Origin: a virus
Virus record (IMG/VR): IMGVR_UViG_3300023174_000145
Coordinates: 1 to 64,000 of that record
Length of the DNA stretch: 64,000 nucleotides
Strand: one strand, 5' to 3'
Shown in pieces: positions 3,244 to 49,800 of the stretch. The notes beneath the pieces are model-generated. The model was not told where the DNA came from and did not search any database. It saw only the letters and a list, made by a program, of their open reading frames with translations. The position numbers and the translations under genes are program-made. Numbering within the stretch: position 1 is the stretch's first letter; each line of letters starts with the position of its first letter.

Positions 3244-3653
3244 TAAAAGTTTCCATAATCTACTTGTAAACAAGTCAAGCCAATAGAACGCCACATATCA
3301 ACAACTCTTTGTCTATCATCAAGCACACAAACTACATCAAAGTTTGGTTTAATTAGTTCTTCATAAATCTCACGCTTAACGACACCATCATTTCTGGTAT
3401 CACCAGTTTTACGCATAAATAATTTCATAAAAGGCGGGCAGTGCAAACGAAGCCATTCAAATGTATCGTCATAACAGATATCATCTCTAGCAGAAACAAA
3501 GATAATTTTATGTCCTGCTTTCCATAAACAGTTTACAACTTCAATTACATCTGGCTTTGGAGCATCATCAAGAACCTTAGAATAATCATATGGATCACGA
3601 TTAGTTCTAGTTGCTACTGTGCCATCAATGTCTACAATTACAGCTTTTTGCAT
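3243..3653 (-). CDS. HAD-family phosphatase (T4 PseT/polynucleotide kinase 3'-phosphatase domain)
   Basis: DIDGT motif I, SAR motif, MRKTGDTRND..VK, and DDR..VVDMWRSIGL.CLQV. Confidence 0.88.
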   Translation of the reverse strand: MQKAVIVDIDGTVATRTNRDPYDYSKVLDDAPKPDVIEVVNCLWKAGHKIIFVSARDDICYDDTFEWLRLHCPPFMKLFMRKTGDTRNDGVVKREIYEELIKPNFDVVCVLDDRQRVVDMWRSIGLTCLQVDYGNF

Positions 3654-3789
3654 TTTTTCTTTTCTTTCTTTTTTTATTTGCCGAGTACTCTTCTTTTATT
3701 CCTAAAAATAGTGTTCCTATTAAAAAAAATGCGGTTCCACTTAAAAGCAATGTTATAAAACCGCCAAGAACATTATCTACACTACACAT
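3625..3789 (-). CDS. Small membrane protein
   Basis: One TM helix followed by a basic tail; start trimmed to the ATG overlapping the upstream stop. Confidence 0.45.
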   Translation of the reverse strand: MCSVDNVLGGFITLLLSGTAFFLIGTLFLGIKEEYSANKKRKKRKNAKSCNCRH

Positions 3790-29895: not shown

Positions 29896-32838
29896 TTATT
29901 CTATAGCTAACCAATGAATCGTTATTGTTGCGCTTGAGACTGCCCCACTTTGACCCCATAATCTTACACTAGCCCCTGTTGAAGTCGGCGCAGATGCTGA
30001 GTTTAAAGCAAGAAAATATGGTGTTGATCCTAGTGATGGAGTTAAAATAACTGTTGATGGTGTGAATGGCAAAGTTGATCCAAAAGATAGTGTTGCAGTA
30101 CCACTTGAAAATACAACACTAGCAACTCCATTTGCTTGTCTTTTTACTGTACTTCCATTTAAAGTTATCTTTGGACTAAAAAAATTTCCTTCATCATCTA
30201 TATATGTTTTTAGTGAATTATTTACTTTTGTTTCTAATAAATTTATTAAATCAGATGCGCCTGTTTTTAATGTTATTGATTGATTTAGATTACTACTAAA
30301 TACCGAATCTGTTGGGTATCCATCACCTATTTGTGGTGCTGTAAAATATATTGTATATACGGGGCTTGGGGTATTTCCAGTCCAACTATATGAACTTTCA
30401 TCTATAATAATAAATTCATAATAAGCTCCAGAAACTGCACTTAGTTGAGTAGATAGTTGAGTATATTCTCCACTAGAACTAACGGTATATGAGCCACCAG
30501 TAGATGTATAAAGTAAATTTCCACCTGTTGCAGCATCATATATTTTTACATCAACTCTTGCTGAGATAGAACCTGCTTGAAATGCTCTAGCAAAAACAGA
30601 AAAGGTATATGTTTTACCATTCAGTAAGCCTAATTGCGTATTACTAAATCTTGATGGAGTTGTTCCATTTGTTGTCCATAATGCTTGTATGCCACTAATA
30701 TTTGATGCACCAAATGCTGATGTTTTAATATATCCTAATTGATAAACACCTACATTATAGTTATTTATAATTGTACTTCCATTACTAATAATAGTTGGAT
30801 TAGCACTAAGAGAAGATGCATATCCAGCTTTCCAATATGTAGATGGAGCTAAAGAAAAAGTAACATCATATGGTTGCATATAATTTCTATTGTATGTTGA
30901 TGATATAGAATTTTGACTTAATGTAAATCCTCCAATTTTTCCAGTTATAGCATTAACTGTTCCATTAAATGTTCCACTAGTTGCATTAATTTCACCAGTA
31001 ACAGTTAATTTATCTACACCAGAATCATATTTCATAAAATTATTAGCACTGCCAACTTTAAATTTTGAAACTTGACCATACGAAGATATATAACCTAATG
31101 TATTATTATAAGTTCCAGAAGGAAGCCTTTCTGTTTTTATAGTTATAGATGTTGAATTTGATGACTCTATTTTAAATGTTCCATTTAAACTTGAATTATC
31201 AAAACTAGATAAATTAACATATGAATTTTGAGCAAATATATTATTAGGGATAGAAGAAAAATTTAATGTACAAAGTGAAGAATTAACTGTCTCTGCTACT
31301 TTAAATAATTTAATATTTTGTATATATAAAATTTTATTTAAACCAAAGTTTTCAATTATACCGCCAGTACCAGTAATTGGTTGTGTTAAATTAACATATG
31401 GAGTAATCTCTAGGTTGAGCTTTACTGTTAAGGTATTCTTTTTTCTTACAGTAGAATTAATTGTATTTGTGTTTAATGATATATCTCCACTAGTAGATGT
31501 GGTAATTGTAAATGTATTATCTGTTTTAGTTAAAACTTTCCAGTTTGCACTTGTATCTAATATTCCAAGTGGAGTATTTAATGACTCATTTATTCCATAA
31601 AAACCTTCTAAGCAAACAATATCTCCAACAGACAAATTATGACCTGGAGCAGTAATTGTTGCATTATTTCCAGTTCTTGAAACTGTGGTTACGTCTGTAT
31701 TTAATATCAAAAATCCATTATTAAAAGATGCAAGATTTTGAATTGGATAATTTTCAAGATCTGTTTCTGAAAGTGTATCTGAAACCTGACTAATATCAAT
31801 AGCTGTATTTTTTAATAAATAGTTTCCAGCATCATCACCAAAATCACCTTCAATTCCATCAGAATAGGTTATTGTTGCATAATATTTGTAGTAGGAGGTA
31901 GATGTAGTATCTGAAAGAGTAAATGTACTTGGAGTATATGTTGTGTTCTTATTAAAAGTAAATAAGTAATTATTGTCATCTATAAATAATCCGTGAGCCT
32001 CTGTACCTGCTTCTATAGTTGTTGCAGGTAAAGTATCTGTATCAGAAAATCCAACATTTCCAAAAAGATTTCTTCCTATCGATATAGATGCTTTTTCATT
32101 TCCAGCCGTTATAACACCATCAAATTTTCCATCTGTTGCTTCTATTGTTCCTCTAACAAAAACATTAGAAAAAATAGCATTTCCAGAATTACTAATCTTC
32201 CAACCTTCATTTCCAATAACAATATCTTCTACTGCATCTGTTGTTACATATAATGTAGAGTATTGATTATACCCTCCATAATAATTTTCATTAGAAAACT
32301 GAGAATCTAAATAATCAGAGTTATAGGTATATTGTACTTCACCCGCAGAATCATCTAAATAATAAAATAAATAAACATCTACTTCTCCATTTAAAACAAT
32401 AGAAGTATTATTCAATGCACTTGTAGTTTTTAAAGATAATGTAACTTGACCATTATCATTATTAACAGAAGATATTATGGTTCCATCTTGTATTCCAGAA
32501 CCAGATATAGTCATATTTTTAACAACATCAGTAACGTCATTAATGGTTATTATTGTTGATCCACTTGTACCAGTAGCCGTTTTATCTGTAATGGTGTATT
32601 CAATAGGCGCAGATTCTATTGATGTTACTAAATGCATTCTTGCTGAATATGCTGGATTAGAATCATAAATTATATCACCCTTTGATATATCTTTTGCCAT
32701 TTTTACTATTGTTTTTTTAGGTATTTCACCATCAAAATTTAAAGATTGTAATCCATCAGAAATTAGCGTTTTTGAGCCATTATCTGTAGTATATGTTTTC
32801 AATGAGTCAAACTGCTTTAATGAATGTAAGTTTTCCAT
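29896..32838 (-). CDS. Tail fibre / receptor-binding minor tail protein
   Basis: GW.I...GNA.F.NV.VRG.I.AT.G and G.INATSG.F.G...A..G.IGGF repeats, carbohydrate-binding-like domain, IHWLAI end. Confidence 0.7.
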   Translation of the reverse strand: MENLHSLKQFDSLKTYTTDNGSKTLISDGLQSLNFDGEIPKKTIVKMAKDISKGDIIYDSNPAYSARMHLVTSIESAPIEYTITDKTATGTSGSTIITINDVTDVVKNMTISGSGIQDGTIISSVNNDNGQVTLSLKTTSALNNTSIVLNGEVDVYLFYYLDDSAGEVQYTYNSDYLDSQFSNENYYGGYNQYSTLYVTTDAVEDIVIGNEGWKISNSGNAIFSNVFVRGTIEATDGKFDGVITAGNEKASISIGRNLFGNVGFSDTDTLPATTIEAGTEAHGLFIDDNNYLFTFNKNTTYTPSTFTLSDTTSTSYYKYYATITYSDGIEGDFGDDAGNYLLKNTAIDISQVSDTLSETDLENYPIQNLASFNNGFLILNTDVTTVSRTGNNATITAPGHNLSVGDIVCLEGFYGINESLNTPLGILDTSANWKVLTKTDNTFTITTSTSGDISLNTNTINSTVRKKNTLTVKLNLEITPYVNLTQPITGTGGIIENFGLNKILYIQNIKLFKVAETVNSSLCTLNFSSIPNNIFAQNSYVNLSSFDNSSLNGTFKIESSNSTSITIKTERLPSGTYNNTLGYISSYGQVSKFKVGSANNFMKYDSGVDKLTVTGEINATSGTFNGTVNAITGKIGGFTLSQNSISSTYNRNYMQPYDVTFSLAPSTYWKAGYASSLSANPTIISNGSTIINNYNVGVYQLGYIKTSAFGASNISGIQALWTTNGTTPSRFSNTQLGLLNGKTYTFSVFARAFQAGSISARVDVKIYDAATGGNLLYTSTGGSYTVSSSGEYTQLSTQLSAVSGAYYEFIIIDESSYSWTGNTPSPVYTIYFTAPQIGDGYPTDSVFSSNLNQSITLKTGASDLINLLETKVNNSLKTYIDDEGNFFSPKITLNGSTVKRQANGVASVVFSSGTATLSFGSTLPFTPSTVILTPSLGSTPYFLALNSASAPTSTGASVRLWGQSGAVSSATITIHWLAIE

Positions 32839-34070
32839 TATGTTGCACCTATAATTTCTGTAGCAGATAATATTTTTGAAGCATTTTTTTCATTATTTGC
32901 TGGCAACCATTTTCCAACAAATTGTTTATTACTGTATGTATATCTTGCAACAGCAAATCTGACATATGTTTTTTTAGCACCAAAAGAAGGAGTTATTGTC
33001 TGAGTATCACTTGTTAATTTTTCAACAGTATCTGTTGCATAATAAATACTACAATATGCTGAGTCTGGTCTTTTTTTTAATTGACTTGCACTTAATTTTG
33101 GTGGGCTTGCTGTTGGGTCAAAAACTCCATTTTCTCCTTTAAGTTTTGAACCAGAATCTGAAGTAGATGGTTTAATGCCCTTTCCAGTATCATTAAAATA
33201 ATACCAGTTTTTATTATCTTGTGAAACAAAAAAGAAATAATAATCTACACAACAATCTTCATCGTTTCTAAATTGATTTATAGTTGCTGCCTGTATTGAA
33301 TCTGGAACTTTAGAATATAAAGTACTAGATAGCCTAAATGTTGTTTTAGTTTTAGATTCAGTCGTTATTGAGTCATGATATACAGCTGGTGGATTATATT
33401 CAAAGTATGCACCTTTCCAAAAATTATTACATTTAGAATTACTTTTGTCTTTATATATATCTTTTAATGCAACAAATATTGGATAGTCCCAAAATCCCCA
33501 TTCATTATTTCTTTTTGTTACTGGTGCTAATGCTCCATAAATTCCAATATTTGGATCTAAAACTCCAAGATTAGTACGAATTATTATTTTTTGACCACTT
33601 ATTTCTCCATCAGATATATTTAAATTTAAACTGCTAAAAGATTGATTAAAATTTTCTAGTTGAGTAATGTGTTCTTTTTTTAAATCTTTATCAAATGTCA
33701 ATTCTATTGTTACTTTTAATTTAAATGGATCTGCGGTAGAATCATTTCCACCAGTTACAGTACTTGTTAAATTAGCTTTTTTTAAAGTACTAATTCCTAT
33801 AACTTTGAAAGCACTGTTTCCTTTTAAAGCATAACGTATATTTGTTTCTGTATAGTATCCTGGAGTAGTAATTTTTGGAGTTATTTGAATTTCTTTACTA
33901 ACATCTTTTGATACCCTAGAAGATGTCATATAAGAAGACATTTCTGATGGAAAATTTGGAGTTTCTATAATAAATGATTCTTTTGTGTATGGATCATCAG
34001 CTAGCGATAGCGTTACCCTATATTTTGTATTAACAAATAAATTATTACCAATCAAAGACTTGCTAGCCAT
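32838..34070 (-). CDS. Minor tail / structural protein
   Basis: 410 aa, coupled within the tail operon. Confidence 0.55.
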   Translation of the reverse strand: MASKSLIGNNLFVNTKYRVTLSLADDPYTKESFIIETPNFPSEMSSYMTSSRVSKDVSKEIQITPKITTPGYYTETNIRYALKGNSAFKVIGISTLKKANLTSTVTGGNDSTADPFKLKVTIELTFDKDLKKEHITQLENFNQSFSSLNLNISDGEISGQKIIIRTNLGVLDPNIGIYGALAPVTKRNNEWGFWDYPIFVALKDIYKDKSNSKCNNFWKGAYFEYNPPAVYHDSITTESKTKTTFRLSSTLYSKVPDSIQAATINQFRNDEDCCVDYYFFFVSQDNKNWYYFNDTGKGIKPSTSDSGSKLKGENGVFDPTASPPKLSASQLKKRPDSAYCSIYYATDTVEKLTSDTQTITPSFGAKKTYVRFAVARYTYSNKQFVGKWLPANNEKNASKILSATEIIGAT

Positions 34071-35239
34071 TATGTATCCAAATTAACTGCTAAAACATAT
34101 TCTATATCAATAATTGATCCAGAATCTTTTTCTATAGGATCTGTTAAAACTGTTCTAGACAGCAACCCCTCTGTATTGTCAATAACTTGCTTAGGTTTTA
34201 TCTTAAGACCATCTAATATTATATAGCCAGTAGAATTTGAAGATATTGATATTTTTGCTATTTGTTCCCAATCTAAATTATTATATGATGTGTTTGATTT
34301 TTGTTCTAATGAAACAACATTATATCCAGAAACAAAATTAAAAACATATGAAATAGAAACATTTGCTATGTCGGTAAATGTTAAAGTTACTGTTTTTGAT
34401 GCAGATGACCAGCCAGCAAAAACAAAGTTATCGTATGGATTTATATTTGACAAATCTAATAATTGTTCATCATAAAAAACTGTACCAGCACCAGTTATCT
34501 TTAAAGCATTATTACCAATTCTATAATCATTACTTGTGTCTGATAAAAACAATGATTTTCTTTGAGCTGGGAAAGAAGTATCTGTTACATATACCAAAGA
34601 AGGATTTATTGTTACACTACCAAGAGAAGCCGAAACTCCAGTGCCATTAATACTGGTAGATAGATTAAAAGTATTTGTTTGAGAGTTTACAACATAATAT
34701 GTTGTATTTAATAATAATCCACTTGGCATAGTTCCTGTAAGAGTAACGGCATCTCCATTAGATAATAAATGACTATTTGAAGTAAATACAGATGGACTTG
34801 CAGCACTTACTGAAGCACTAAATGTTGATGGCAATTCTTTTAATAAATCACCCTCTTCAAAATTAAAAACTGTTAATGAATCAATATTTGCAGATTCTGT
34901 TATTACATTTGAAAATACACCAACCTCATATATCTTATATCTTTTTTCATCTTTTATTCTTGCAGAATAAACTAATCCATCACTAGTACCAACATTTCCA
35001 AGAGTTGATGTAAATATTGGATATTTACCAACAGTAAAATCTAAATCATCCATACTTAAAAACGTATCTGTACCATTTGATTTAGTTGAAATTCCGATAC
35101 CTAAAGAATTTGCAAAATATTGATTTTGACCAAGTAAAGATTTTAAAATGTTTGATCTTCCTAAAACTGTTAATTTATTCTTTTGCTCTACTTCAAGTTT
35201 TCCATTTTTATATATTCTATATACTCCATACATACTCAT
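34070..35239 (-). CDS. Minor tail / baseplate protein
   Basis: N.LT..GR, I.EVG.F, PIEK.SG...DIEY motifs; inserted beta-repeat module. Confidence 0.6.
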   Translation of the reverse strand: MSMYGVYRIYKNGKLEVEQKNKLTVLGRSNILKSLLGQNQYFANSLGIGISTKSNGTDTFLSMDDLDFTVGKYPIFTSTLGNVGTSDGLVYSARIKDEKRYKIYEVGVFSNVITESANIDSLTVFNFEEGDLLKELPSTFSASVSAASPSVFTSNSHLLSNGDAVTLTGTMPSGLLLNTTYYVVNSQTNTFNLSTSINGTGVSASLGSVTINPSLVYVTDTSFPAQRKSLFLSDTSNDYRIGNNALKITGAGTVFYDEQLLDLSNINPYDNFVFAGWSSASKTVTLTFTDIANVSISYVFNFVSGYNVVSLEQKSNTSYNNLDWEQIAKISISSNSTGYIILDGLKIKPKQVIDNTEGLLSRTVLTDPIEKDSGSIIDIEYVLAVNLDT

Positions 35240-35250
35240 TATTATACCAC

Positions 35251-36318
35251 CTAAATCTCATCAAATTCTATATTTATTTCATAGTTTTGATATTCTTGTT
35301 TTAAAACATATCTAAAGTCTATAGTATTTCCAGAACTAACACCAACAGAAAACTTATAAGCAGATTTATTGGTTTCAGCGGATATTTTTCCAAAATATTT
35401 ACTCTTTCTAATAAATTTATTAGAACCAAAAATTTCTTGAAGTTCTGCTTTTAATGAACTTAAAATTTCCGCTTTATGAGATACCTCATCTTCTTCTTTA
35501 TTTGTATTCATATCATCAAAATCTGAAAGAGAAAAATCTATAGGCAAGTAGTTGCCAGATTGGTCTTTAACTTGAATCTCATAATCTGGAAGATAATCAA
35601 TGCTTTCATAATTAAAATCAGTTAATAAATCATCACCAGCCTGAATAAGACTTAATTCCATTTTTTCTATAAGTGCATCATCAATAGCTTGATATTCTAG
35701 TGAATTAAATAAAACATCATAGCTTTTAGGTAAAGATTTTATTTCTTTTGGGTATTCTTTTATTGGTTTACTAGATCCGCCAACATACGTTTTTTTTGTT
35801 TTTATAAATCCACTAACATTAGTATATGTTTTGTTTGTTGGTGGTGTTGGTGGGTTAACAGTTTTTGGCTTTTCATATTTAAGTATTGGTGGTGGTTCCA
35901 TTTGATAACTAGAAGGTTTTCCATTAATTTCCCATTTAGATGTTTCAATATTCCAATTTTGTGCAAAACCATGATCGGGATTAGTTTCATCAAAATTAAT
36001 ACCTATCCAAGTTCCTTCTGATGTTGTACCATATTGTTGCATTCCATCTTTTGAAGTCCAAGTTTGTGGTTTATAATTTGATTCAGTAAATGGCTGTATT
36101 CCTAAAGTACTTGGATCAGCATCTCTTGTAGATGGATATAATGGATCATTTCTTGTTTGTAAAATTTGTGGCATTGATAAGTCTTCTTGATACTTTGCAA
36201 TCTTTGTATGTGCTTTATCTAAATACCACTTATTGTCGGAAACATTCCAAAACAAAACTTTTCCATATTGATCTTTATGTTTTTTATTATAATCATATAT
36301 TTGAAAAAAATCTGACAT
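35251..36318 (-). CDS. Hypothetical tail-region protein
   Basis: 355 aa, Pro/Thr linker; position in the tail operon. Confidence 0.55.
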   Translation of the reverse strand: MSDFFQIYDYNKKHKDQYGKVLFWNVSDNKWYLDKAHTKIAKYQEDLSMPQILQTRNDPLYPSTRDADPSTLGIQPFTESNYKPQTWTSKDGMQQYGTTSEGTWIGINFDETNPDHGFAQNWNIETSKWEINGKPSSYQMEPPPILKYEKPKTVNPPTPPTNKTYTNVSGFIKTKKTYVGGSSKPIKEYPKEIKSLPKSYDVLFNSLEYQAIDDALIEKMELSLIQAGDDLLTDFNYESIDYLPDYEIQVKDQSGNYLPIDFSLSDFDDMNTNKEEDEVSHKAEILSSLKAELQEIFGSNKFIRKSKYFGKISAETNKSAYKFSVGVSSGNTIDFRYVLKQEYQNYEINIEFDEI

Positions 36319-36319
36319 A

Positions 36320-39300
36320 TTATATACACTCCTTAAGAGTCAAAGTCATTTCAGGTCCATTATTCTTTACAGAATATGATATACCTGTAATTGTGTATGT
36401 TGATGATTCATCATTATAATATTTATCTGAATATAATAAACCTATTTTATCTCCAAGTTTTAATAAAGGATTTGGAAAAACGCCAACACTTAATGTTTTT
36501 CTTTCTTTTGATAGATTATCAATTACCCACTTTGCCAAATGTTTTGCCTGTTCTCTATCATTAATAAACTGTCCACTAAGTTGTAATTCCTGTGTACCAT
36601 ATAATTTTCTATTAGCATTATATTTATCGTTTATATCAAGTTCATAGTTTTCCTTTTCTAAAAATTCTTTAGATTTAATTGTTCCAGGACTTCTTTCTTT
36701 TAATGGAAAACCAATAATAAATAATGGTGTTCCATTTTCTGTATCTAATTTTATTGAAGAGTTTCCAGTATTATGTACCCAAAAGGTGCCACCGTGATTT
36801 GATAAATTAACATCAGATACTTGATAGTATTTACTTGTTTCCGATAGAGATATAATTTTTGGTGTTAAACCAACGTCTTCAAATCGTATATCAAATTTTT
36901 TAACTTCTCTAGCTAATTTTCCAAAATCTTCAAAATATAAGTAGCTTCCCTTTCCATTTGTTTGTCTTCTATAATTAATTCCAGGTGGCAAGTAACATCT
37001 ATTAAAATCATTTTTTATTTCAGAGAAGTATGATATATCATCTTCGTCATCTTTTCTAGGAACAATTCCCTCTGCACCAGAATAAGCAAATAAATGTTCA
37101 AATATTGCAGATGACTGACCTCTAACAAAAAGACCTATTGTTGATTTTGTATCTGATGTTGAAGTAATTTTATTTTTACTATCCACCGCAGTCATTACAT
37201 TCTGACCTTCCCAAAAAATATCAAACTGGTTTGAACCATTAGAACGAGTTATTGAAATATCTAAGTCAAAAATTATAGCCTGTGATTTTCCATCTTTTTG
37301 TCCTTGTTGTTCTAAACCAGACCAACTTGTATTTGAAACATTTACCCAAGTTTCTGCAATTACTGTTGGAATATACTTTCCATTGTCCTGAGTTATTTTG
37401 TATAGCCTCATATTTCCAAAGTTTGCAGATGCAAGTTGATTGCCATTAATAGTTCCAACATCTTCTACTTCTAAAAAGTATCCAGTAATTCCATTCTTTT
37501 TTACACTAACGTCCCAAGACACACCAGCAATCATGCCAGAGTTTATTGGCTTGTCACCCTTACTTACATTTTTAGGAACATCATATACAAGTTTCATTCT
37601 AGTACCAAACCTATTTACAACAACTTTTGTACCATTTTTATTTTTTATTTGTTTAAAAATTCCAGTAATAATATTTTCTGATGGATCTGATGAAGGTAAT
37701 AAGTTTTTATTAGTTGAACTATATTTTCTATTTTGGGTAACTGTTCCTTTACATTTTGGACCACTAAGTTTTAAGTTTCCAGTATATCCTTGCAAAAACT
37801 TGGTTGTTCTCATAGTTTGATTATTAAAAAATGTTTCTGTTTTATTTGAAACAGTAAGATTGTTAGTTAACATATCTATATTTGCACCCACTCCATACAA
37901 CCTAACTCCAGATCTTTTCCAGTCAGGATTTTGTTCCAAGAATGACTTATGTGTATTTACACCTTTATGTTCAGAAACCTCTGTATTATTTATTCCTCTT
38001 CCATCACCAGTTACTAAAATATCTATTTTTTCTTCATCTAAAGAATTTTGTGTTTCTTCTGTTTGTATATCTAAAATTAAAGCTAAAGGCTCTAATGAGC
38101 TTCCTTGTTTCAAACTTGATTTTGTATAGTTATACTCTTCTGAACTAAATATTATTTTTGTTTTATATGAATTATATTTTGGATTACTAACCAAAAACAT
38201 AATTCCATTATATTTAATTATTTCTTGATCAATTCTTATATAACCTTTATAGGATGATGTAGCAAAAGTATGAATGTAGTTACTATCTAATTTTATCAAC
38301 ATTCTTTTTCTTATATCGTCAGTAGTATGTTCTGCTAAAAATTTAATTAACTGTTCTTTATTTTTTTTAGATTCAAAAGTTAGTAGATTATTATTGTTTA
38401 AATAATCATATATACCAGTAACTGGAATATCCTGTACTAATATTGCTGCACATAAAACATTTTCTGTTTTATCTTTTTTATTACTAGCCTCCCATAAGAT
38501 ACCAAAAGAATTTCTAAAATTTGTATCTGCTAAAGACAAAGAAAATGATGGATCTTCTAGTGCTTTTTTTACAGACTCATTTACATCGCTTTTAGTTATA
38601 AGAGCAGCACTTGGTTGTTTTGCAATGCCAATATCATTATATGCAACATTAATATCTGTAATTGGAGGTTCAAATGTTTCGTTAAAAGACGATATATTGC
38701 TTATGTATGTAATATCATCTTTTATCAAAGAGTTGTCATTTCCATATAACCAAAAATCTTTTGTTTTTTGTTTTGCAATAACTCTTTCTTTAGTCATAGC
38801 TACAAGGTTATTACTTTCATCCATATACATAGATGTTTGTGTTGAAACAGCAAGAGACTCTAAAACCTCCATAACATTTTGTTCTTTTTTTGAATAGAAA
38901 AAATCTAAAATTACATCTTCTTTATCAGCATTTTCATCTGTACCAGTTTTTTCAAAAATAAAATTGTTATATCCTATATTGTCTAAAAGAGTTAACATTG
39001 CAACAGATGTTGGTACACCAGATTTATTTGCAATAAGTAAGTCTGGGGCAGCTCTTTCTTTAAAAAATTTAAAATAATCTTGTAATGATACATTAACTGT
39101 AGAGTTATCTCCTTCATTCCATATGTCTGTATACAATGTTTTTAAAGGAAACCTATATGTTTTATTATCTACAATAACTTTTTGATAAATTTTTACTTCT
39201 ACATTTGGCTTTAATACATCGCATATAATTGAATATGTATTATTTTTACTAAATGCACCATCTGTATTAGAAATTGTTATTGTTCCTGATGTAGAGGCAA

Positions 39301-40276
39301 TAGATCCGACTGGCAGACCATATGCAGAATTAGCCATTTCAGAATCAATATTAAAATCTACCACTGAATTAGTTATGTCAGAAACTAATCTAGGACTAAT
39401 TTCAATTACCTCTAATGGAATATATGCTGAAGACATTTTTGTTGCTTTAAATCTTATACCCTTAATTTTTATTGCACCGCTTACAGAATTATTATATGCA
39501 AGAAAATCAAATACTGTTTTTTCATCTGGTTGATCAACAGCATTAATATAGGCATCCCAACTATTTGATAATGAATCATAATAAATATCTAATACGCCAT
39601 CACTTAAAAGATTTGATGATGTTTTTGTAAATATTGTTTTCCAAGTATCATCAATATAAACATCAATATCAAAATTGGTGGCATATCCTAAATGTTTTTG
39701 TGTTTTTATTGATATTTTATTAATCCATATATCATTTTTATAAATAACATAAGGTGCTGCAAAATCAATATAATTTTGAGAATTTGATGTACCAACAGAA
39801 TATCCTGCTTTTTTTCTACCAGAAGACCAATATTTAAAACTTGATTCATTTCCCATAGGATATAATCTTGGCGATGATGTATTAATATCAAAGATATTTT
39901 TTATTTCTAAGGTGGATGATTGTCCAGATATTGTTTTCTCTTTACCAATCATTGAATCTAAATAAATAGATTTAATAATTCCAGGATTTGGTCTATTTGT
40001 CTCAAATATACTATAAAGAGGAGAATGTTTTTCTCTTACAATATCTTTTACTATATGATCCGTAGAATATTTTATATCTTGGCAACCAGAATCTTTTTCA
40101 TTATAATTATTATATGATCCTATTTCTAATATTGGAGTATATGCATTGTAGTTCCATTCAACAATTATTTGATGATTAGAATCTATTGTAGAATTTGCAG
40201 CAAATTCTTTTTGAATATCTTTATATGTTTCTGGATGAGAAGTAATAAATTTATCGATAGTTTTATTAGTTAACAT
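36320..40276 (-). CDS. Large tail-tip / hub protein
   Basis: 1318 aa, two genes after the TMP; C-terminal F.NP.L.LGD.I motif typical of tail hub proteins. Confidence 0.7.
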   Translation of the reverse strand: MLTNKTIDKFITSHPETYKDIQKEFAANSTIDSNHQIIVEWNYNAYTPILEIGSYNNYNEKDSGCQDIKYSTDHIVKDIVREKHSPLYSIFETNRPNPGIIKSIYLDSMIGKEKTISGQSSTLEIKNIFDINTSSPRLYPMGNESSFKYWSSGRKKAGYSVGTSNSQNYIDFAAPYVIYKNDIWINKISIKTQKHLGYATNFDIDVYIDDTWKTIFTKTSSNLLSDGVLDIYYDSLSNSWDAYINAVDQPDEKTVFDFLAYNNSVSGAIKIKGIRFKATKMSSAYIPLEVIEISPRLVSDITNSVVDFNIDSEMANSAYGLPVGSIASTSGTITISNTDGAFSKNNTYSIICDVLKPNVEVKIYQKVIVDNKTYRFPLKTLYTDIWNEGDNSTVNVSLQDYFKFFKERAAPDLLIANKSGVPTSVAMLTLLDNIGYNNFIFEKTGTDENADKEDVILDFFYSKKEQNVMEVLESLAVSTQTSMYMDESNNLVAMTKERVIAKQKTKDFWLYGNDNSLIKDDITYISNISSFNETFEPPITDINVAYNDIGIAKQPSAALITKSDVNESVKKALEDPSFSLSLADTNFRNSFGILWEASNKKDKTENVLCAAILVQDIPVTGIYDYLNNNNLLTFESKKNKEQLIKFLAEHTTDDIRKRMLIKLDSNYIHTFATSSYKGYIRIDQEIIKYNGIMFLVSNPKYNSYKTKIIFSSEEYNYTKSSLKQGSSLEPLALILDIQTEETQNSLDEEKIDILVTGDGRGINNTEVSEHKGVNTHKSFLEQNPDWKRSGVRLYGVGANIDMLTNNLTVSNKTETFFNNQTMRTTKFLQGYTGNLKLSGPKCKGTVTQNRKYSSTNKNLLPSSDPSENIITGIFKQIKNKNGTKVVVNRFGTRMKLVYDVPKNVSKGDKPINSGMIAGVSWDVSVKKNGITGYFLEVEDVGTINGNQLASANFGNMRLYKITQDNGKYIPTVIAETWVNVSNTSWSGLEQQGQKDGKSQAIIFDLDISITRSNGSNQFDIFWEGQNVMTAVDSKNKITSTSDTKSTIGLFVRGQSSAIFEHLFAYSGAEGIVPRKDDEDDISYFSEIKNDFNRCYLPPGINYRRQTNGKGSYLYFEDFGKLAREVKKFDIRFEDVGLTPKIISLSETSKYYQVSDVNLSNHGGTFWVHNTGNSSIKLDTENGTPLFIIGFPLKERSPGTIKSKEFLEKENYELDINDKYNANRKLYGTQELQLSGQFINDREQAKHLAKWVIDNLSKERKTLSVGVFPNPLLKLGDKIGLLYSDKYYNDESSTYTITGISYSVKNNGPEMTLTLKECI

Positions 40277-40803
40277 TATACTTCCACCAAACTAAGATTT
40301 ATATCCCAAAGATCTGTATCTATGCCCCTAGTTATAATATTATATGAAAAGTTTTCAAAAAATACATTTACTATTTCTACATTTGTTTTAATTTCTGACT
40401 TTAATACTGAAGGATCATTGTCATAAACAAACAATGCCCAAAAACTTCCAGTATGATTGTTATACCAATCTAATATTTGTTGACCACCACCAAACTGATT
40501 TCTTGTATTTGAATATTCAGTTACATAGTCTTTTCTAGATGGAAGTCTTTTCCAAGAAGTAGAATATGTTTTTTTATCTGCAATATGATATGAACGCATT
40601 GTTCCATTTATCATACGTTGTCTATGTTCTATTCTTTCAAAAGCAATAGCAAGATCTGAACGATTATCATCAGATAGATATAAATAATTTGTTCCAAGAT
40701 CCCATTTTCCAGCTCTAGAACCTACACCTTCTACTGGCTTATCTTCTGTAAAAATAATTAATGATGGTCTAGAATATTTTTCTTGTAAGTATCCATATGA
40801 CAT
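40276..40803 (-). CDS. Distal tail protein-like
   Basis: Immediately after the TMP; RMINGTMRSY..ADK and W.I.LSL.EV motifs. Confidence 0.65.
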   Translation of the reverse strand: MSYGYLQEKYSRPSLIIFTEDKPVEGVGSRAGKWDLGTNYLYLSDDNRSDLAIAFERIEHRQRMINGTMRSYHIADKKTYSTSWKRLPSRKDYVTEYSNTRNQFGGGQQILDWYNNHTGSFWALFVYDNDPSVLKSEIKTNVEIVNVFFENFSYNIITRGIDTDLWDINLSLVEV

Positions 40804-43800
40804 TAACAGTAAACACCTCTTGAGTTATTACCTATTGTACCACCCATAGCCTTATTAACGTGACCCATAACCATATCCATACCTGCACCATTAAAGTTAA
40901 AGTGATAAGTTGGGGCATTTGTGTTACCTTCTGCATATCCACCGCCATTATATTGTGCAATAGATGCTATACCAGATGGAGAAATGGATGGTGTTGAAGG
41001 AATACTATATGTAGGAGAAGATGGAACTGAGGTTCGTGGCATTACTCCAACACCACCCCCACCTGCATATCTTCCAGCATTAACAGCATTCATAAATGGA
41101 ACGCCATACTTTGCTACAGAAGAAGCCTTTACTACATATTCCCCATTTGACAACATCGCTGGTATAGAATCGGAAGTTGTGCTTCCTGGACCAACCATAT
41201 GTCCACCATTAGCGGCATATTTAAACCAAGGGAAAAGTCTATGAGTTATTCTAGAACCACCATAATTTGTTACGTTTGAATAATCTTCGCCCTCACCTTT
41301 ACCTGTTAAAATATTGAATAGTGATTGAGCAGAGTCAAATTGATCCAGTTTTTCCGCTGCCTCTGGAACATATTTTTTGGCTGCTTTTCCAACAGGTTTT
41401 GCAGCATTTAATACCGACCTTACTCTATTGCTTTCAATTATTGATTTAATTTTATTAGACTCTGAAAAAGTTTTTAGTTTATTAACATCTGTAACTAAAT
41501 CTATAAGTGTTCCACTAGCATAAACAGCATTTTTTGCATCTATTGTTTTTGACAATAATCCAGCAACTCTAGATGCTTTTGACGCAATAGATGCAATTCT
41601 TCCAACCTGAGCAAATTTTGCAAGCATAGCAGCCTGACCAGCTCCTGGAACAAACATAAGGGCGGTGGTGCCTAATTCTAATAATCCACCACCAAGTGAT
41701 TTAAATCCAGCCTTAAATTCACCTTTTCTAAAATGCCTATACATACTAGTAAAATCATCAACACCCAGTAAATTATTTGCAATTCCAGAGCCAATACCCT
41801 TAATAAACTTTTTAGGATCTTTCATTGTAGATATTGCAAAATTTTCAACAGTATCTGAGATGTCAGAGACGGTGCTTCTTGCTCCATTCCATAAACGTTT
41901 AACCAATCCACCAAATGCAAAGTGTTGAGAATTTATAGAATCTAAGAAAGGTTTTCCATACTTTGATACAGATGATGCTTTAACTACATATTCTCCATCA
42001 GATAACATAGCTGGAATTGAGTCAGATGTTGCTGTTCCTGGACCTGAGATATATCCACCATCTGCCCAATATTTCCATTGTGTAACAGGAGTTTTTGATG
42101 GATCTGTTTTAAGTGCTTTTTTATTGTATGGAGATCCATCAGCATATTGCCATTTTCCACCAACTTCGTAAATTCTTGTTCCATCTTGAGCATATCCAGA
42201 TTTTGCAGTTGATGGTGGGCTTGTTTGTGGAGTTGTTGGTGGATTTGTAATTCCAGGCAAACCATTTTCATTAAGTGTTATGGCATAAGCAAAAGCTGCA
42301 ACAGCTTCTGTAACTCCAGGAGCAGGTGGTTTTTGCAAAAGACCAAATACATCCTTATAGGCTTTAGATGTTTCTGGATCAATACCCTGTGATTGAAATA
42401 TCTTTTTTACATTTGTACTTGCAGCATTTAATCTATCTACTGCATCCATCGTGTCTCCAGCCATAATAGCAACAGCATCATTAAAACCTGATTTTGCAGT
42501 GTTAAATGATTTGATTATACTTTGATCTTTAGTATTAATAGTCAATCCAGTTCCAGCAGAAATTCCTGTCTTTTCTGCTTTATCTGCAGCAGATTGTGCA
42601 GCAAGTATTGCTTTCTGCCAGCCTGGAGTACCAATAGACATACCCTGAGCTTTTTCAATCAAATCTAATGCTTGAGTTATTTGACCAACAGCTTGTGATT
42701 CTTTTTTGCGAAGCAAATCTATTTCTGCATTAATATTATCTATCTCAGCCTGATGTCTGGTATCTTCTGCTTTCTTTCTGTCATCAATAGCCTTTAATGA
42801 ATCATCAAGTTTCTTTTGTTCTGCATCGGCGGTGTCTTGAATATTTTGCATAGACAAATCTCTACCATATTGATCTGCTGCACTTGCTGCCTCTATTTGA
42901 GAACCAATAAATCCAAATACATCTCCAGATGCTATAGCCTTTAATCCAGTTAAACCAGTTTGTCTTTGCTTTGCATAAAAATCCTCTGCTTCTTTTTCTT
43001 TTTGTAATTGCTTTAAATAGTAATCGGTATTTTCTTGCAATATACCTTTTTTGTTATTAATTCTTTCTGCTTCAAGATCTAGATTTTCTAATGCCTTTTC
43101 GTGTCTTTTATCTTCAGTTTCAAGTTCTGCCTGTTTTGCCTCTATTGCAACATCAAATACTTTTTGAATACCTTCTTTTAATTGATTTAGTTGTTTTGCG
43201 GTATCTTCTAGTTGAAGGTCAACATCAGTTTCTATTTTTACAAGAGACATTCTTTTTGCTAATTCTTCTGGAATTTTTTTGCCAAGGTCTGCCTCTATTG
43301 TTCCATTTAAAATTGCTGCACTAAGGTCTTGACCCATACCATTACCTAGAGCAAGAAGTGCAGCTTTTTGTTTTGATTTATCTAGTTTAAAGAAAGCACC
43401 ATCTTTTCCAAAAAAATCAAACAGTGCGCTTCCTTCTCCAAAACCTGCATCTTTAACCATTTGTTGTAGTTGATCTGACAATTTTCCTATATCAGCATTT
43501 TTAAATTCAGAAACTATTAAATTTACTGCTTCTGTGGAAGCAGTTGGATTTTCCGCAGCCATTGCAAATGCAGATTTTAATGTTGCACCTAACTGTGATG
43601 CAATTTGAGTTTTAACTTTATTATCAATTAATACTGGTGCAATTAATGATGTAATCTGCGCTCCACCAAGATAGCCCCAAACACCTTTTGTTCCAAAAAT
43701 TCCCCTTAAGAATTTATCCTTAAGACCATTTCCAGTTGCACCAAGTGCTTCAAACATTACTCTTTGATTTTCAGCACCAGACTTCATAAGTTGGTCCCAA

Positions 43801-46800
43801 CTCTGACCATTCCATTGTGCTTTAACACCAAATTCATTAGATCTCTGTTGTAATAAAGCTGTTTGATTTTTTAATGTTAATATTTGTTGAGCCAGAGCAT
43901 CTGGTGCTGTTTTTATTGTTTTAAGTCTTTCAACTACACTAGCATAAGAATCTAAGGCTTGTCCTTGTCTTGCAATTTCTGCCGTTATTTCTCTTGCTTC
44001 TTTAGCCTTTATACCTCTTTGAATTAAATTGCTATAAACATTAACAAGCTGATTATTCTTTTCTTGCAAACTTTTTGTACTTTTTAATGTGTCAATCAAT
44101 GGACTAAAATCTGTTTTAACTGTTTTTTCAAAAGCTTTATTGTATGCACCAATGCCTTGATCTAAACCAGAAATATTTTGAGCAACTTTATTAAATTTTT
44201 CTACAGCATCTGTTGTAGATTTTAACTGAATACCTAACAATTTTGCAGTTTCTGTAGGTTCAGCAAAAGCTGCTTTTCCAGCCTGTCTTGCTTTTTCCAT
44301 TTCAGCATTATAAATTTCAATACCTTTTTGAATCCCAGTAATTGCAAGATCAATTCCCATACTAACTATAGGATTACTTAAAGCACTTGCAAGTTTGCCC
44401 ATACCAGACCCAACTCCAGATAGTCCCTTTCCAATAAATCTTTTAATAGGACTATTAACAGCTTTTCTAGTTTTAATATCGTAGATATCGGCACTCATTT
44501 CGTCACCTTTATCTTTTAAGGTTTGTCCAAAAGTACCCATACCACTATTTGCAAAGTATTTTAGTCCTTGTGTAGCAGCAGCAATTCCAGCAACCCATTT
44601 TTGTCTGCCATTTTGAACATCAGATGTGAATTGATCCAATACAAACTTCATTTGAAAACCTGATGTTGCCATCATACTGAAAGCTGCAGCAAACTTACCC
44701 ATACTTCCTGGTTGAATATCTCCCATATATACTGGTTCTGTAAAATCTGCCGATGTGCTGTCAAAGTTGTTTGCTCTAAAGTTTTTACCACGAATTAATG
44801 ATGTTCCAAATGGATGAACAATTCTCTTTCTTGCTTCATCTCCTGGACTTGTAACACCTGCTACTCTGCCATCTGGAGTAACCGCCAAAAGTTCACGGCT
44901 TGAAACAGCCATTGGATGACCACTTGCAGATGTGACCAACATATCATCAATAGTGCTTGAAAGAATCTTACCATCAGGAGATACATTAACGGTAGCACCT
45001 GTACCACTAATTCTGTCTCCACCGCCAGCAAATGATGGATAAATAATTTTTGATTTAGAAACTCCACTTGGCATAACAACACCACTTCTTGATTGTGGAG
45101 TTTTTGCATCTTCGTTATATGAAATAACTTTAACTGTTGGCAAGCCTGGTGGCAATGCTCTAGATTGAAGTGTTTCATAGAAGTCACCCTTTAGTCTTTC
45201 TTGCAAACCTGCAACTACCGCAATAGGAATACCTTTTCCATCTTTTGTATTTCTTGGAAACATTCTTGCAAGTTCAAGCATAGTCATAGCACCTTGGCGG
45301 GTAGTTGGATGAATACCCTTAGAAAGATTAGTTAACTGTTCAATTACAACATTCTTTGGTAATCCTGTTTGTGACATAACTGCATCAATAACATATGGTG
45401 CTAATAATCCACCACGACTTTGAATATCGCCTCTGCTTTTAAGTGTTTCAAGGAATGTATTATATACCTGAGATTCTTTTATTAGATTTGCTGCTTCCCA
45501 TATCTTTGTATACACTTCTCCAGTATTTGTTGTTGCAGGATTAATGTGCGCTAATACGTCTAGCATATAATACATAGCTTTTTTATCTGGATTTTCAAGA
45601 CCAGCATCAATTAATGCTTGCATAATTGCTCGTGACTCTGCACCCTTTGTAGCCCAATCAGGCAGTGATCTTAAAACAGTTTCATATTGTTTTGGTGCAG
45701 ATCCCTTTTTGTCCCATTTATGAGTTGCTTCTTTCATAGAGTCTTCTGCAAAATTATTCACTCTGCCGCCAGATTGTAGATGTTCTGGATTTAATAAATG
45801 TGAAACTCCAGTAATGTTTTTACCAGTAAGTTCATCTGTAACGCCAAAAAGTTTTGCAAGAGCAATTTCAATTATATTTGGATAAACTTTTGTTCCTGGA
45901 TTTTTAGCCCTTCTGCGCTCCGTATTATCTCTAGTTTTTGCAAGAGTGCCACCAATTCCCTCAGCCGCTGTTTGAAAAACTGTATAATCAGCTTTTTTCC
46001 TTTGATAAATTTTTTCAGGTAATGGAAAACCTTTAAGTTTTGCTGGCAAATTTTTTAAAGTATATGACCCATCTTTTTCTAGTACATATCCCAAAGCATC
46101 AAATGCTTTATCTACACCAAATGCTCCTAAGTCTGTTCTAACATCAGAAAACTCTCCTCGTTTTTTAAAGTCTTCTATTAGCGACTGAACCTTTTTTGAC
46201 ATTAAAGTTTTTTGATAAAGTTCTGGATCATTAATCATATCGTTTGGATCTGTTTTATTTAATTTGTTAGAAACAAAAGACTGTATTTCTTTAGGATTAA
46301 TTGTTGTTCCAATTTTATTAAACAATGCAGTCATTGTATTTAAAGCTTTTGGTGCATTTATATAATTATACAAATCCATTTCTTTTGCTGATGACTTAGA
46401 AAGCTCACTATTTAATGTTTTTGGTATGTCAAATCCAATAGGATAAAGCAATCTACTTGCTCCAAAACTCATATAAGGTACAGTATGTGCAAATGCTAAA
46501 TTATTAGATTTATATTCTTTTTGATACAAAGATTTATCAGCAAAATTATTTACTCTTCCACCAGATTGCAGCATCCAAGTTGGGAAACCTGCATCTATTG
46601 CCTGTTGACGCTCTGCTGCATCTGCTGCTTTCTTTTCTAATGCTTTTGCTGTAGGAGCAGATTTTGGCTTAACTGGTTCTGGTTTAATGCCAACGTGATG
46701 AGCGTGTATTTCTTTCCAATTAATTTTACTTGCTGCTGACAAATCACCAATAAGTAATTGATACATTGCTTTTTCTTCAGGTGTTAGATTTTGAAGAGCA

Positions 46801-49800
46801 CCAATAGCACCACCAGCATTTGCCTGTGCCTCAGCAATAGCATTTAAGAAACCAGCCTCATATTGCTCTGGTGTCATTGATGCTGCTATACCTGCTGTTG
46901 CTTCTGCAAACCATCTACGAGCACCACCTTTTTGCATAAGGAAATTAATTCTTGCTTGTGTAGCAACATCATACTTTTTACCACTTAATGTTCTTGGCTG
47001 TGATGCTCTATCTGAAACATATGCAGCACCTGTATCTGTAACAATGCTATCAAATAAATTATCTGCTTGAAGGTCGGCATCCCCACGAATAATTGCTGCA
47101 AGTGCTTGTTTAAAGAATGCTTCTGGTGCAATCTGTCCAGATGTTTTAGCAAATCTTGAATCAAACGGTGAACGAACACCAAACATTTGCTGACCAGTTT
47201 GTGGATGTAAGAATTTAATTAGTTCTTGTTGTGGTGTGGTCAAACCAAACATATCTTGAGTTAATTGTGTTCCTCTAGATTCAATAAGGGCGGAATCAAG
47301 TGTGTTATGACCCTTAACAATAAACTTTTGACCATTAATTTCATAAACACCATTAACTCCAGGAATAGCAGAACTAAATCCGCCCATACCACTTTGTCTT
47401 TGACCAACATCAGTTATTGGCATACCAGCAAATCTTCCAGTAGTTGCTTCTAGATGAGCAAGGGCAAGCATTTCTTCAATAGCTGCTTGTTTGTCTGCAT
47501 ATTTTTGTGGCATTAATGATTTAGATTCAAAGTTGTTTACTCTTCCACCTTTTAGATATCCAACTGGACTAAGATCTGGTATATGAGCTGGATATGGTTG
47601 TTTTAGCTGTACATAGTCGCTATTCTCTTCATCCCAAATATCATAGATTGCTTTATTAGATATTGGAGATAGACTAATTCCATCTCTACCAATATTAAAG
47701 TTTGTTATAGTTGCAGGAGACCATTTGATACCTTGATATCCTTCTTTAACTAAATATTCAAAAAATGGGGAGCCAGGACCACTATGTTCTGCTGCACTTG
47801 CTGCATCTCTAAGCCAATGATTTTTATTAAAGGATGGTCCATAATAATCTCTGTCCTGCATTGCTTCTTTTCCAGATTTTGTTCTAGAAAAAGAATTAAT
47901 AAGTTGTATTAATTGTTTACTTGGTTCGTGAAAATCTGTTGTTTCATCATATGCTTCAATATAGCCTTTTCCTCTAGCAACTTTTCTAAAAGCTTCTCTT
48001 GTTTTTGAAATAGTATATTTGAAGCCTCCTGCATAACTATCCCAGCCTTCATCGTGTGTCTTTAAGTTTGATGAAAAATATGTTCCAGGACCTTCCATTT
48101 GAGCTGACCCTCTATCATACTTTTCCATAGTTTGAATACGACTTGGATCTATGGCAAGCATTTGGTCTCCAGCGTGAACCATAAACATTTCCATAAGAGC
48201 TGCTTTCATTCCTGGACTTAACTGATTTGGATCAGTAATATTAAACATACTCATATATCTTCTTAGTATATTTAATTGTGTTTTTTCTTCTTCTGACCGA
48301 CCAACAGCATTAGGAAGCAAAATATGAAGTGCAGTATTTAAAGGATTTGATCCCCATATTTCATCATCTGGATATGGTCTTCTTTTTTCAGACCTTCCAC
48401 GACCAAAACCTTTAAAATTATGAGACTGTAACTCTGTATCTATATATTGAGAAGAAGCCTTTTTTATTTCTTCTTCTGTCCAGCCAACCTCAGCACTCTG
48501 TATTCTTCCACCATTTTGTTTAAAATTAAGAACATAAGGGAATAAATGCTTTTGCTCGTCATAGGCTTTTTGACCACCTCTGAAACTAGATGGCGGTGCC
48601 CACATTTGAGAAACAGAATCTAATACCCCAGAAGTTGTAGCTGTTGCTATTTCTCTTTCCTTTAACTGCTCTCCCATATATTCAGTGCTTTGTGCTATTT
48701 GTGATATAGGAAGCATTGATGTGCCTTTACCAAACAATCTTTCAATCATAACTGTTTGAGGCTCTACACCCATAGGAAGTTGGCTTTGAAGTTCATTCTT
48801 TACCGCCTGAACAGTTTCTTCTCTGGCTCTTCTACCACGATCTATAGCATCTTCAGTAATTGGATCGGTAGGAGATAAACCAATTCTTTTTTGTAAATCT
48901 TCTATTACAAATGGATTATTTGGTTCTCTTCTAAACATATCAACAACATAATTAAATGCATCTAGATTCTTTTGTTTTCTAAGCAAGTCTTCTTGAATAA
49001 AACTTCTACCAGAAAGAGGATTGCTAAATTGTTTTCCAACTAGCCAGTCAAGTGCGTGTTCGCTATATGATTGTGGAGAACCATTAAAGTTAATTTTTCT
49101 TCCAGCAAGACTTAAGAAATCTCCAGATTCTAGTGCTTGCAAAATAGCAAGTTGGTCTGCGTCTGGTATTTCTCCAGGAAGTCCCAAAGATGTTTTTCTT
49201 CTAAGAGTCATCGGGTCTTTAGATGGCTCAAAGTATGACATAAATTTTTGAAGTCTTTCTGGATCTTGTCTTAGATATTGAGTGCTTTGTTGCCAAGATT
49301 CTACTAATGATAATAATTCTGGTGATACTGATTTATCAGCGTAGTTATTTACTCTACCGCCAGACTGGAATATAGGAACTTCACGACCATTTATATTTTT
49401 AGTTGCTCCTGGAAGAACAGAATGAAGCATAAGCATTCTTGTTTTAAGGTCACTACCATATCCAGTAATTGGAATACTCATTCCACCAGGAAGAATAAAC
49501 TCACCTTCATTGCCCCATTGAGTTGTACCTTGAAAAAGTGACTGAACATCTATGCCACCAATATTATTTCCTTTACCAGTCCAAAGGTCGTGTATCCAAG
49601 GAATTAATTCTCCAGCATCTAGTTTTCTTTGACGAGAATCAGAAACCCTTTTATTTTTTGGATCTTGAAATGTTTTAATAAATCTTTTGTAAAATTCTGT
49701 ATCTTGAATATCACTGTATGAAGTAAACCTATCTAATCTTTGCTGATATGGTGCATTTGCCCAATTCAATCTTACATCTCCACGACCACCACGACTGGTA

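Follow-up and report, generated by a model that had tools for sequence, protein, structure and literature searches.

A predicted kinase-fold module in the giant tape measure proteins of uncultured siphoviruses from fresh water

The giant tape measure protein (TMP) encoded by the IMG/VR virus record IMGVR_UViG_3300023174_000145, which derives from an uncultured lake phage, contains a module that is predicted to adopt the bilobal fold of the protein kinase-like (PKL) superfamily, with an apparently intact active site, and that is fused in frame into the TMP between what are probably flexible GGRVNN linkers. We analysed positions 1 to 64,000 of this record (64,000 nucleotides; hereafter referred to as the window), where the TMP gene (P0001) occupies positions 40803-52247 on the minus strand as a stop-free open reading frame (ORF) of 3,814 amino acids (aa). 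Six linker-delimited cassettes are present in this TMP, and the kinase-fold module is the fourth of them (cassette 4), located in the middle of the protein. Including an N-terminal helix and a helical C-lobe, it spans positions 46563-47549 (minus strand; aa 1567-1895, ~330 residues). Cassette 4 founds, or belongs to, an unannotated family of PKL kinase folds, which occurs almost exclusively as an optional module within giant TMPs of uncultured freshwater siphoviruses. As the best joint explanation of the data, we consider it fairly probable that the module is an intact PKL-superfamily kinase domain that is carried in the virion as an optional part of the TMP, refolds, and phosphorylates a host target.

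Catalytic motifs and their conservation

The original prediction had listed a Gly-rich segment and the motifs FIVKGH, ALIESRG, GDADLQADN, and TDTG in canonical kinase order, and all of them were found in that order, with coordinates at most one base off. All of these motifs are encoded on the minus strand. The Gly-rich loop GMGGFSSAIPGVNGVY (positions 47343-47390; aa 1620-1635) lies between the predicted strands beta1 and beta2. It is followed by FIVKGH (47307-47324; aa 1642-1647), in which K1645 (47313-47315), the candidate beta3 lysine, is located in a predicted strand (model residues 74-81), and by ALIESRG (47271-47291; aa 1653-1659), in which E1656 (47280-47282), the candidate helix-C glutamate, is located in a predicted helix (model residues 84-101). 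The putative catalytic loop GDADLQADN (47058-47084; aa 1722-1730), which contains the pattern D1725-x4-N1730, comes directly after a predicted helix (model residues 142-155). The TDTG motif (47028-47039; aa 1737-1740), which provides D1738 as the probable DFG-equivalent metal-binding Asp, comes after two short strands (model residues 165-170). These motifs suggest that the full set of nucleotide-binding, metal-binding, and catalytic residues (K1645, E1656, D1725, N1730, and D1738) is retained.

When 1.84 billion cluster representatives were searched exhaustively by HMMER with the cassette of the window, 156 proteins matched at E<=1e-3, 72 of which match at E<=1e-30, and nearly all of these proteins are 2,000-4,400 residues long. 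Conservation was counted on a phmmer alignment of 151 domain copies, most of which are 30-37% identical to that of the window. The catalytic Asp and Asn, on whose conservation the original prediction had made its kinase assignment depend, are kept in 147 of 148 (D1725) and 148 of 148 copies (N1730), and the other residues of the set are also invariant or nearly so: K1645 in 137/137, E1656 in 141/141, D1738 in 148/148, and G1740 of the DxG motif in 144/148. R1721 and D1723 in and before the catalytic loop are each kept in 141 of 148 copies. In the Gly-rich loop, G1623 (132/133), S1625 (130/133), G1633 (137/137), and Y1635 (133/137) are conserved, and P1672 and Q1714 are, like G1633, invariant. 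The active-site consensus of the family can be written as R-G-D-K-D-L-x3-N ... A-D-V-G, with the loop more exactly given as R-[GVR]-D-K-D-L-x3-N. A chance match to the kinase motifs was rejected because the catalytic residues are invariant across the family.

Predicted structure and structural neighbours

An AlphaFold2 model of cassette 4 (me91d94447147), for which 40 domain copies from IMG/VR loci and fragments served as the input alignment, was obtained with a mean predicted local distance difference test score (pLDDT) of 92.1 and a predicted template modelling score (pTM) of 0.88, and all five models score between 89 and 92. Low confidence is confined to the ends (pLDDT 54 for the block of residues 1-10 and <50 for residues 330-334). 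The predicted N-lobe consists of beta1 (50-54), a long Gly-rich loop, beta2 (67-71), beta3 with K1645, and helix C with E1656. These elements are followed by beta4, beta5, the helix ending at R1721, the D-x4-N loop, two short strands, D1738-x-G, and a helical C-lobe, the helices of which lie at residues 195-327 and were aligned with kinase C-lobes up to about residue 288. The module is thus modelled as a bilobal PKL fold, with a beta-sheet and helix C in the N-lobe and helices in the C-lobe. The core that superposes on solved kinases comprises model residues 41-288 (aa 1607-1854; positions 46686-47429, minus strand).

A Foldseek search of the PDB with this model returned kinases exclusively, and the top match was CtkA of Helicobacter pylori (E 3.8e-4, probability 1.00). 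In an independent VIA search of 48,161 representative chains, PKL kinases occupied the top 47 of 50 rows. The best neighbours in VIA were CotH (5jda; Z 11.0, root-mean-square deviation (rmsd) 4.0, 218 aligned residues), MavQ (7m7a; Z 10.5, rmsd 3.8, 214 aligned), CtkA (Z 10.3), and PI4KII-alpha (4hnd; Z 9.7, rmsd 4.5, 214 aligned), followed by Golgi casein kinase (Z 9.5), HipA (4pu3; Z 8.6, rmsd 4.6, 199 aligned), and HipT and actin-fragmin kinase (Z 8.2 each); the range for HipA and HipT as a whole was 8.2-8.7, and the alignments of the leading neighbours extend over 190-220 residues. When the Foldseek matches were aligned with VIA, CtkA reached Z 11.3 (3akk_B; rmsd 4.3, 202 aligned) and LepB Z 9.6. 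Kinases of the PI3K, PI4K, and PIKK groups and then RIO and Bud32 appeared in lower rows, and classical eukaryotic-type kinases scored only Z 5-6. Although a best Z of 7-8 is common in VIA for models with no true match, we trust the present match because Z reaches 11, the matches form a homogeneous list, the whole core (41-288) is covered, and the independently recognized motifs agree with it. The nearest named ESM Atlas clusters were LepB_N, PI3_PI4_kinase, and HipA_2 (all 0.89), which should be regarded as leads only. The structural comparison with HipA, CtkA, and PI4K that the original prediction had called for therefore supports its kinase fold, all of the leading Foldseek and VIA matches being protein kinase-like.

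Relationship to known kinase families

The label that the original prediction had attached to the module, a HipA/PI3-PI4-kinase-like domain, is correct with respect to the branch of the fold. CtkA, PI4K, and HipA are all among the structural neighbours, but membership in the corresponding sequence families was not found. Cassette 4 matched no Pfam family at E<=10, and no PHROGs or NCBIfam entry. When 40 family members were compared with Pfam, matches were at chance level only (HipA_2 in 2 of the 40, at E 0.025), and neither PF00454 nor PF08757 was detected. Searches of PDB sequences by phmmer and with the family profile gave only spurious helical matches, and hhalign found no match between the family profile and HipA of Escherichia coli (probability 0.3%). 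Membership in the HipA family (HipA_C or HipA_2) was thus rejected on the absence of a Pfam match and on the hhalign result. Membership in the PI3K/PI4K family (PF00454) was rejected because no profile match was found in the 40 members and there is no DRHxxN loop, and membership in the CotH family (PF08757) because no profile match was found, the likeness being one of fold only.

CtkA (PDB 3AKJ/3AKK/3AKL) and CotH of Bacillus cereus (5JD9/5JDA), the best structural neighbours, share with cassette 4 the bilobal fold, the Lys, the Glu, the D-x4-N pattern, and the metal-binding Asp, but are only 10-13% identical to it in sequence. They also differ in context: CtkA acts on human cells as a secreted, stand-alone effector and CotH is a kinase for the assembly of the spore coat, whereas cassette 4 is an internal module of a tail protein. 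HipA and HipT belong to the same branch of the fold; however, the catalytic loop of the cassette 4 family (R-x-D-K-D-L-x3-N) lacks the His of HipA, the N-terminal subdomain of HipA has no counterpart (the alignment spans only HipA residues ~122-437), and cassette 4 has no antitoxin partner. PI3K/PI4K-type lipid kinases (PI4KII-alpha, 4HND; MavQ, 7M7A; LepB, 4JW1) resemble the module in fold (Z 9.6-10.5), but their DRHxxN loop and helical solenoid are missing from it. The style of its motifs, namely a Gly-Ser-rich loop, then a hydrophobic-K-P beta3, and then acidic residues, presumably recalls that of type II PI4K.

Kinase domains have also been proposed in polyvalent proteins of phages and conjugative elements, which are multi-effector polypeptides delivered together with the DNA (PMC5512222). 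In the description of these kinases, the whole C-terminal kinase subdomain is lost, and a conserved His...Asp phosphotransfer pair with an insert is present (Iyer et al. 2017, PMC5512222). Cassette 4, in contrast, keeps the helical C-lobe and lacks the His of this pair, and was therefore excluded from the polyvalent-protein kinase clade, as there is no conserved His before the catalytic Asp. TMPs are not mentioned in that study (PMC5512222).

The carrier protein

The carrier is a genuine phage tail TMP, as indicated by both profile matches and its position between tail chaperones and distal tail genes. It matches PhageMin_Tail of Pfam (PF10145; aa 240-436, E 7.7e-28) and TMP entries of PHROGs, the best of which is phrog_10030 (E 2e-107). 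Upstream of the gene on the coding strand are genes for a portal, a head protease, a capsid protein, and a major tail protein with an Ig domain, together with two small ORFs that are chaperone-like, and downstream are genes for minor tail proteins. The same gene order is seen in Streptomyces phages of Stanwilliamsviridae, such as Wakanda, to which the portal is 54% identical. The whole IMG/VR record comprises 74,408 bases and is estimated to be 67% complete.

The nearest cultured relative in terms of the portal and the TMP core is phage Wakanda. Its TMP (2,088 aa) has the N-terminal core in common with that of the window (32% identity over aa 157-632), but contains a Peptidase_M23 domain and no kinase cassette. 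The two proteins are therefore alike in having an enzyme domain embedded in a TMP; however, cell-wall hydrolases of this type act on peptidoglycan, a substrate outside the cytoplasm, and do not need ATP, unlike the kinase-fold module of the window.

Copies of the GGRVNN linker repeat lie at aa 715, 963, 1246, 1567, 1896, and 2160 of the window TMP, so that cassette 4 is flanked by copies on both sides (aa 1567 and 1896). The N-terminal linker LKGGRVNNFESKS (positions 47520-47558, minus strand; aa 1564-1576) has low pLDDT values, and the C-terminal linker begins with LQSGGRVNNFADKS (positions 46524-46571, minus strand; aa 1893-1908). In the TMP family in general, cassette slots are bounded by GG-containing linkers and by an ~50-aa motif of the GEYV type. 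This motif, G-x-G...(D/S)-x-(V/I)-P-A-M-L-x-x-G-E-Y-V-V (also written G-P-G...P-A-M-L-x-x-G-E-Y-V), occurs in three copies in the window TMP (aa 663-710, 3394-3450, and 3677-3730; positions 50118-50259, 41898-42068, and 41058-41219). It is matched by 80-105 of the 151 kinase-bearing TMPs, which makes it the most widely shared element in them besides the core and the kinase, and several TMP entries of PHROGs match it in their C-terminal part.

Distribution of the module and other cassettes

The domain is encoded on at least 168 IMG/VR contigs, and the guanine-plus-cytosine (GC) content of the loci is 33-43%. The TMP core of the window is present in 109 of 127 long domain-bearing proteins, in most of which the kinase is the first module, located 64-230 residues after the core. 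Because each of the other five cassettes of the window was found in only 3-5 of 150 proteins, the kinase appears to be the common cargo and the others rare ones. In a search that started from the TMP core, 29 of 51 core-related TMP ORFs with complete 3' ends contained the kinase and 22 did not. The absence of the module from these close relatives indicates that it is an accessory module and is dispensable for TMP function. A scan of 185,579 species genomes yielded a single match, on a contig of 43% GC labelled as a Bifidobacterium metagenome-assembled genome (MAG), which is probably a mis-binned phage and gives no clue to the host.

Other domains were also found in linker-fenced slots of kinase-bearing TMPs from other metagenomes. 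A HAD-type acid phosphatase (Pfam Acid_phosphat_B, E 4e-15) is present at aa 1463-1586 of P0050 and an OmpA-like peptidoglycan-binding domain (E 1.7e-18) at aa 2678-2771 of P0023; both are rare in the TMP family. In the TMP of IMGVR_UViG_3300010157_000324 (L086), the core is 85% identical to that of the window TMP (positions 40803-52247), whereas the kinase cassette is 61% identical and is located ~300 residues closer to the core. This difference in identity suggests that cassettes have been exchanged or diverge faster than the core. In BFVD, the model matched kinase-like folds inside large multi-domain virion-type proteins of cultured actinophages, for example a Mycobacterium phage Onyinye protein of 1,340 aa that bears the annotation ADP-ribosyltransferase, as well as Gordonia phage proteins. 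Further kinase-like folds were matched there in fusion proteins from uncultured phages that are labelled 'portal' and 'head morphogenesis'. These predicted structures hint at virion-borne kinase modules beyond TMPs.

Integrity of the sequence and signs of selection

Metagenomes from lakes and fresh water, belonging to at least three studies, contain the stretch. Assemblies of runs from two other studies (X2 and X4) bridge both junctions of the cassette: the N-terminal junction in X2 record 5 (46991-48659) and X4 record 22 (46893-47598), and the C-terminal junction in X2 record 3 (45361-46601) and X4 record 21 (46338-46893). An assembly chimera was therefore rejected. Eight strain variants are listed within the cassette, of which seven are synonymous and one is a K->R substitution. 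The ratio of non-synonymous to synonymous substitution rates (dN/dS) was 0.38-0.49 against three relatives, with dS near saturation. In a freshwater metatranscriptome run of 2015 (X8), the library of which may contain DNA, three short identical contigs correspond to positions 47620-48768 of the window, that is, to cassettes 2-3 and outside the kinase cassette.

Possible function of the module

TMPs fill the lumen of the tail, are expelled ahead of the DNA, and insert in the envelope. Kinases need ATP, and the module, if it acts as one, must therefore gain access to the cytoplasm or to the inner side of its membrane. Judging from PKL enzymes, it would bind Mg-ATP and transfer the gamma-phosphate to a hydroxyl acceptor. 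In terms of kinase enzymology, K1645 and E1656 would position the phosphates of ATP, N1730 and D1738 would hold Mg2+, and D1725 would serve as the catalytic base. As the biology of TMPs and gp96 of phage P23-45 (described below) suggest, the virion may carry the module in a non-native and extended conformation. The module would then exit the tail at infection, refold once it has reached the cytoplasmic membrane or passed beyond it, where it has access to ATP, and phosphorylate a host target ahead of any phage gene expression. The most plausible target would be a protein involved in defence, transcription, or translation, and the GGRVNN linkers may serve as hinges or cleavage sites.

Gp0.7 of phage T7 is a kinase that is expressed after entry and is not virion-borne. 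The proposal for cassette 4 has in common with Gp0.7 and with the polyvalent-protein kinases the concept of a phage kinase that acts early on host proteins, and we infer by analogy with both that the module may have an anti-defence role. One experimental precedent is available for the fusion of a cytoplasmic enzyme to a TMP. Gp96 of Thermus phage P23-45 is a TMP of 5,002 aa, the N-terminal part of which is a virion RNA polymerase that transcribes the pre-early genes (Chaban et al. 2024, PMC10770324). The authors of that study describe TMPs as metastable inside the tube and as being injected upon infection (PMC10770324). Both cases involve a giant TMP fused to an enzyme that needs the host cytoplasm; however, the enzyme of gp96 is an N-terminal RNA polymerase of proven activity, whereas that of the window is a predicted kinase-fold module in the middle of the TMP.

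Several points weigh against a virion-carried kinase. The Lys that precedes the catalytic Asp in the family consensus (K1724 position; 129 of 148 copies) is Ala in the window and its closest relatives. The window sits in a divergent subclade in which this position is Ala, Ser, or Asn, and the Lys is therefore unlikely to be essential. The spacing between the catalytic-loop Asn and the DxG motif, 8 residues, is shorter than that in classical protein kinases. The assignment of the conserved Lys, Glu, Asp, Asn, and second Asp to catalytic positions rests on the order of the motifs and on predicted secondary structure. Three folded domains of 35 kDa are too large for the lumen of a tail tube of ~4 nm, so that carriage would require storage in an unfolded or extended state, or removal before assembly. 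Finally, no cultured phage with the domain was detected when 50,697 GenBank phage records were searched by tblastn, the queries being the window cassette and a typical family member.

Among the alternatives, a lipid or small-molecule kinase that works on the cytoplasmic side of the membrane where the TMP inserts, its substrate being for example the head group of a phospholipid, a precursor of the cell envelope, or a signal derived from a nucleotide, seems improbable, but has a number of points in its favour. Lipid kinases are among the best neighbours (MavQ, Z 10.5; PI4KII-alpha, 9.7; LepB, 9.6; PI3K/PI4KIII, 7-8), LepB_N and PI3_PI4_kinase are among the nearest named ESM clusters, and TMPs are membrane-inserting proteins, hydrophobic segments being present in that of the window. 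In addition, actinophages have a related structural module, as the 54% identity of the portal to those of Streptomyces phages indicates, and actinobacteria have phosphatidylinositol lipids. However, protein kinases are equally good neighbours (CtkA, 11.3; CotH, 11.0; Fam20C, 9.5; HipA/HipT; actin-fragmin kinase, 8.2), and neither a Pfam match to PI3_PI4_kinase nor a DRHxxN loop was found. Furthermore, the actinophage marker WhiB was not found in the 74-kb record, itself 67% complete. Alternatively, the kinase might work late in infection within the producer cell, while tails are being assembled or before that stage, on the TMP, tail proteins, or host factors, and then be trimmed at the GG linkers. 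This would be in line with the misfit between folded cassettes and the tail lumen, with the repeated GGRVNN linkers as potential processing sites, with the synthesis of the TMP in an ATP-rich cytoplasm, and with the high rank of CotH (Z 11.0), an assembly kinase for spore-coat proteins. We nevertheless regard it as quite unlikely: the TMP-fused enzyme of P23-45 acts after injection (PMC10770324), a kinase needed in the producer cell only would have no reason to be fused to a TMP, and relatives carry other effector-type cassettes in the corresponding slot, such as the HAD phosphatase and the OmpA-like domain.

Two further alternatives were considered. The unusually long Gly-rich loop, the dispensability of the catalytic-loop Lys in the clade of the window, and the presence of Bud32 and RIO kinases among the VIA matches (Z 6-7) would be compatible with another ATP-dependent chemistry, as PKL folds also support AMPylation (SelO), glutamylation (SidJ), and regulatory ATPase reactions (Bud32/RIO). 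Such chemistry is decidedly unlikely here, because the constellation of Lys, Glu, D-x4-N, and DxG is intact and in canonical order and because SelO, SidJ, and other non-canonical enzymes are absent from the best matches. A catalytically dead spacer (pseudokinase) that adds length or a docking surface to the TMP could be envisaged, since the length of a tail is determined by that of its TMP and since the cassette is optional. This explanation is hardly tenable, however, as pseudokinases typically lose at least one of the catalytic residues that are invariant or nearly so here in ~150 homologues of 30-37% identity, and as all but one of the eight listed strain variants are synonymous.

Returning to a virion-carried kinase that modifies a host target, a broader and more tentative proposal can be made. 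Giant TMPs might be modular effector-delivery polyproteins, with the kinase as their most widespread cargo and the linkers as points of exchange or cleavage. The kinase would be threaded in an unfolded state, refold at the inner face of the membrane, and phosphorylate an immune sensor, a translation factor, or a membrane component within seconds of adsorption, before phage transcription. We regard this as possible, but doubtful in its full extent.

Novelty and implications

Our literature searches found no kinase domain in a TMP, and neither this kinase family nor its location in TMPs seems to have been described before. Taken separately, virion-delivered effector enzymes are already known, as are TMP-fused enzymes and PKL kinases. 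To our knowledge, TMPs are viewed as rulers and channel formers, and the enzymes that they are known to contain are, apart from the one virion RNA polymerase of P23-45, mostly cell-wall hydrolases. If the module is delivered, siphovirus tails would carry ATP-dependent effectors, which would widen the set of virion-delivered tools for host takeover and counter-defence. The proposed activity would, if true, amount to a post-translational attack that is launched pre-emptively from the virion by a kinase family not described before. The family adds an unannotated branch to the kinase-like superfamily and poses a structural problem, namely how globular modules of 35 kDa are stored in a tail lumen of ~4 nm. 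It also provides a protein that can be tested directly, as the small size of the domain, its good prediction, and the availability of obvious catalytic-dead controls all favour experiments.

Other features of the window

A 466-aa ORF at positions 61928-63328 (minus strand), which is possibly open to position 64000, lies directly upstream of the portal gene, in the place expected for the large terminase, and had no PHROG match at E<=1e-3. The GC content is 0.27-0.30 over the distal tail and minor tail genes (positions 30001-40000; ORFs at 29896-40276), compared with 0.33-0.39 elsewhere in the window, and this low-GC region may be a recently exchanged host-recognition module.

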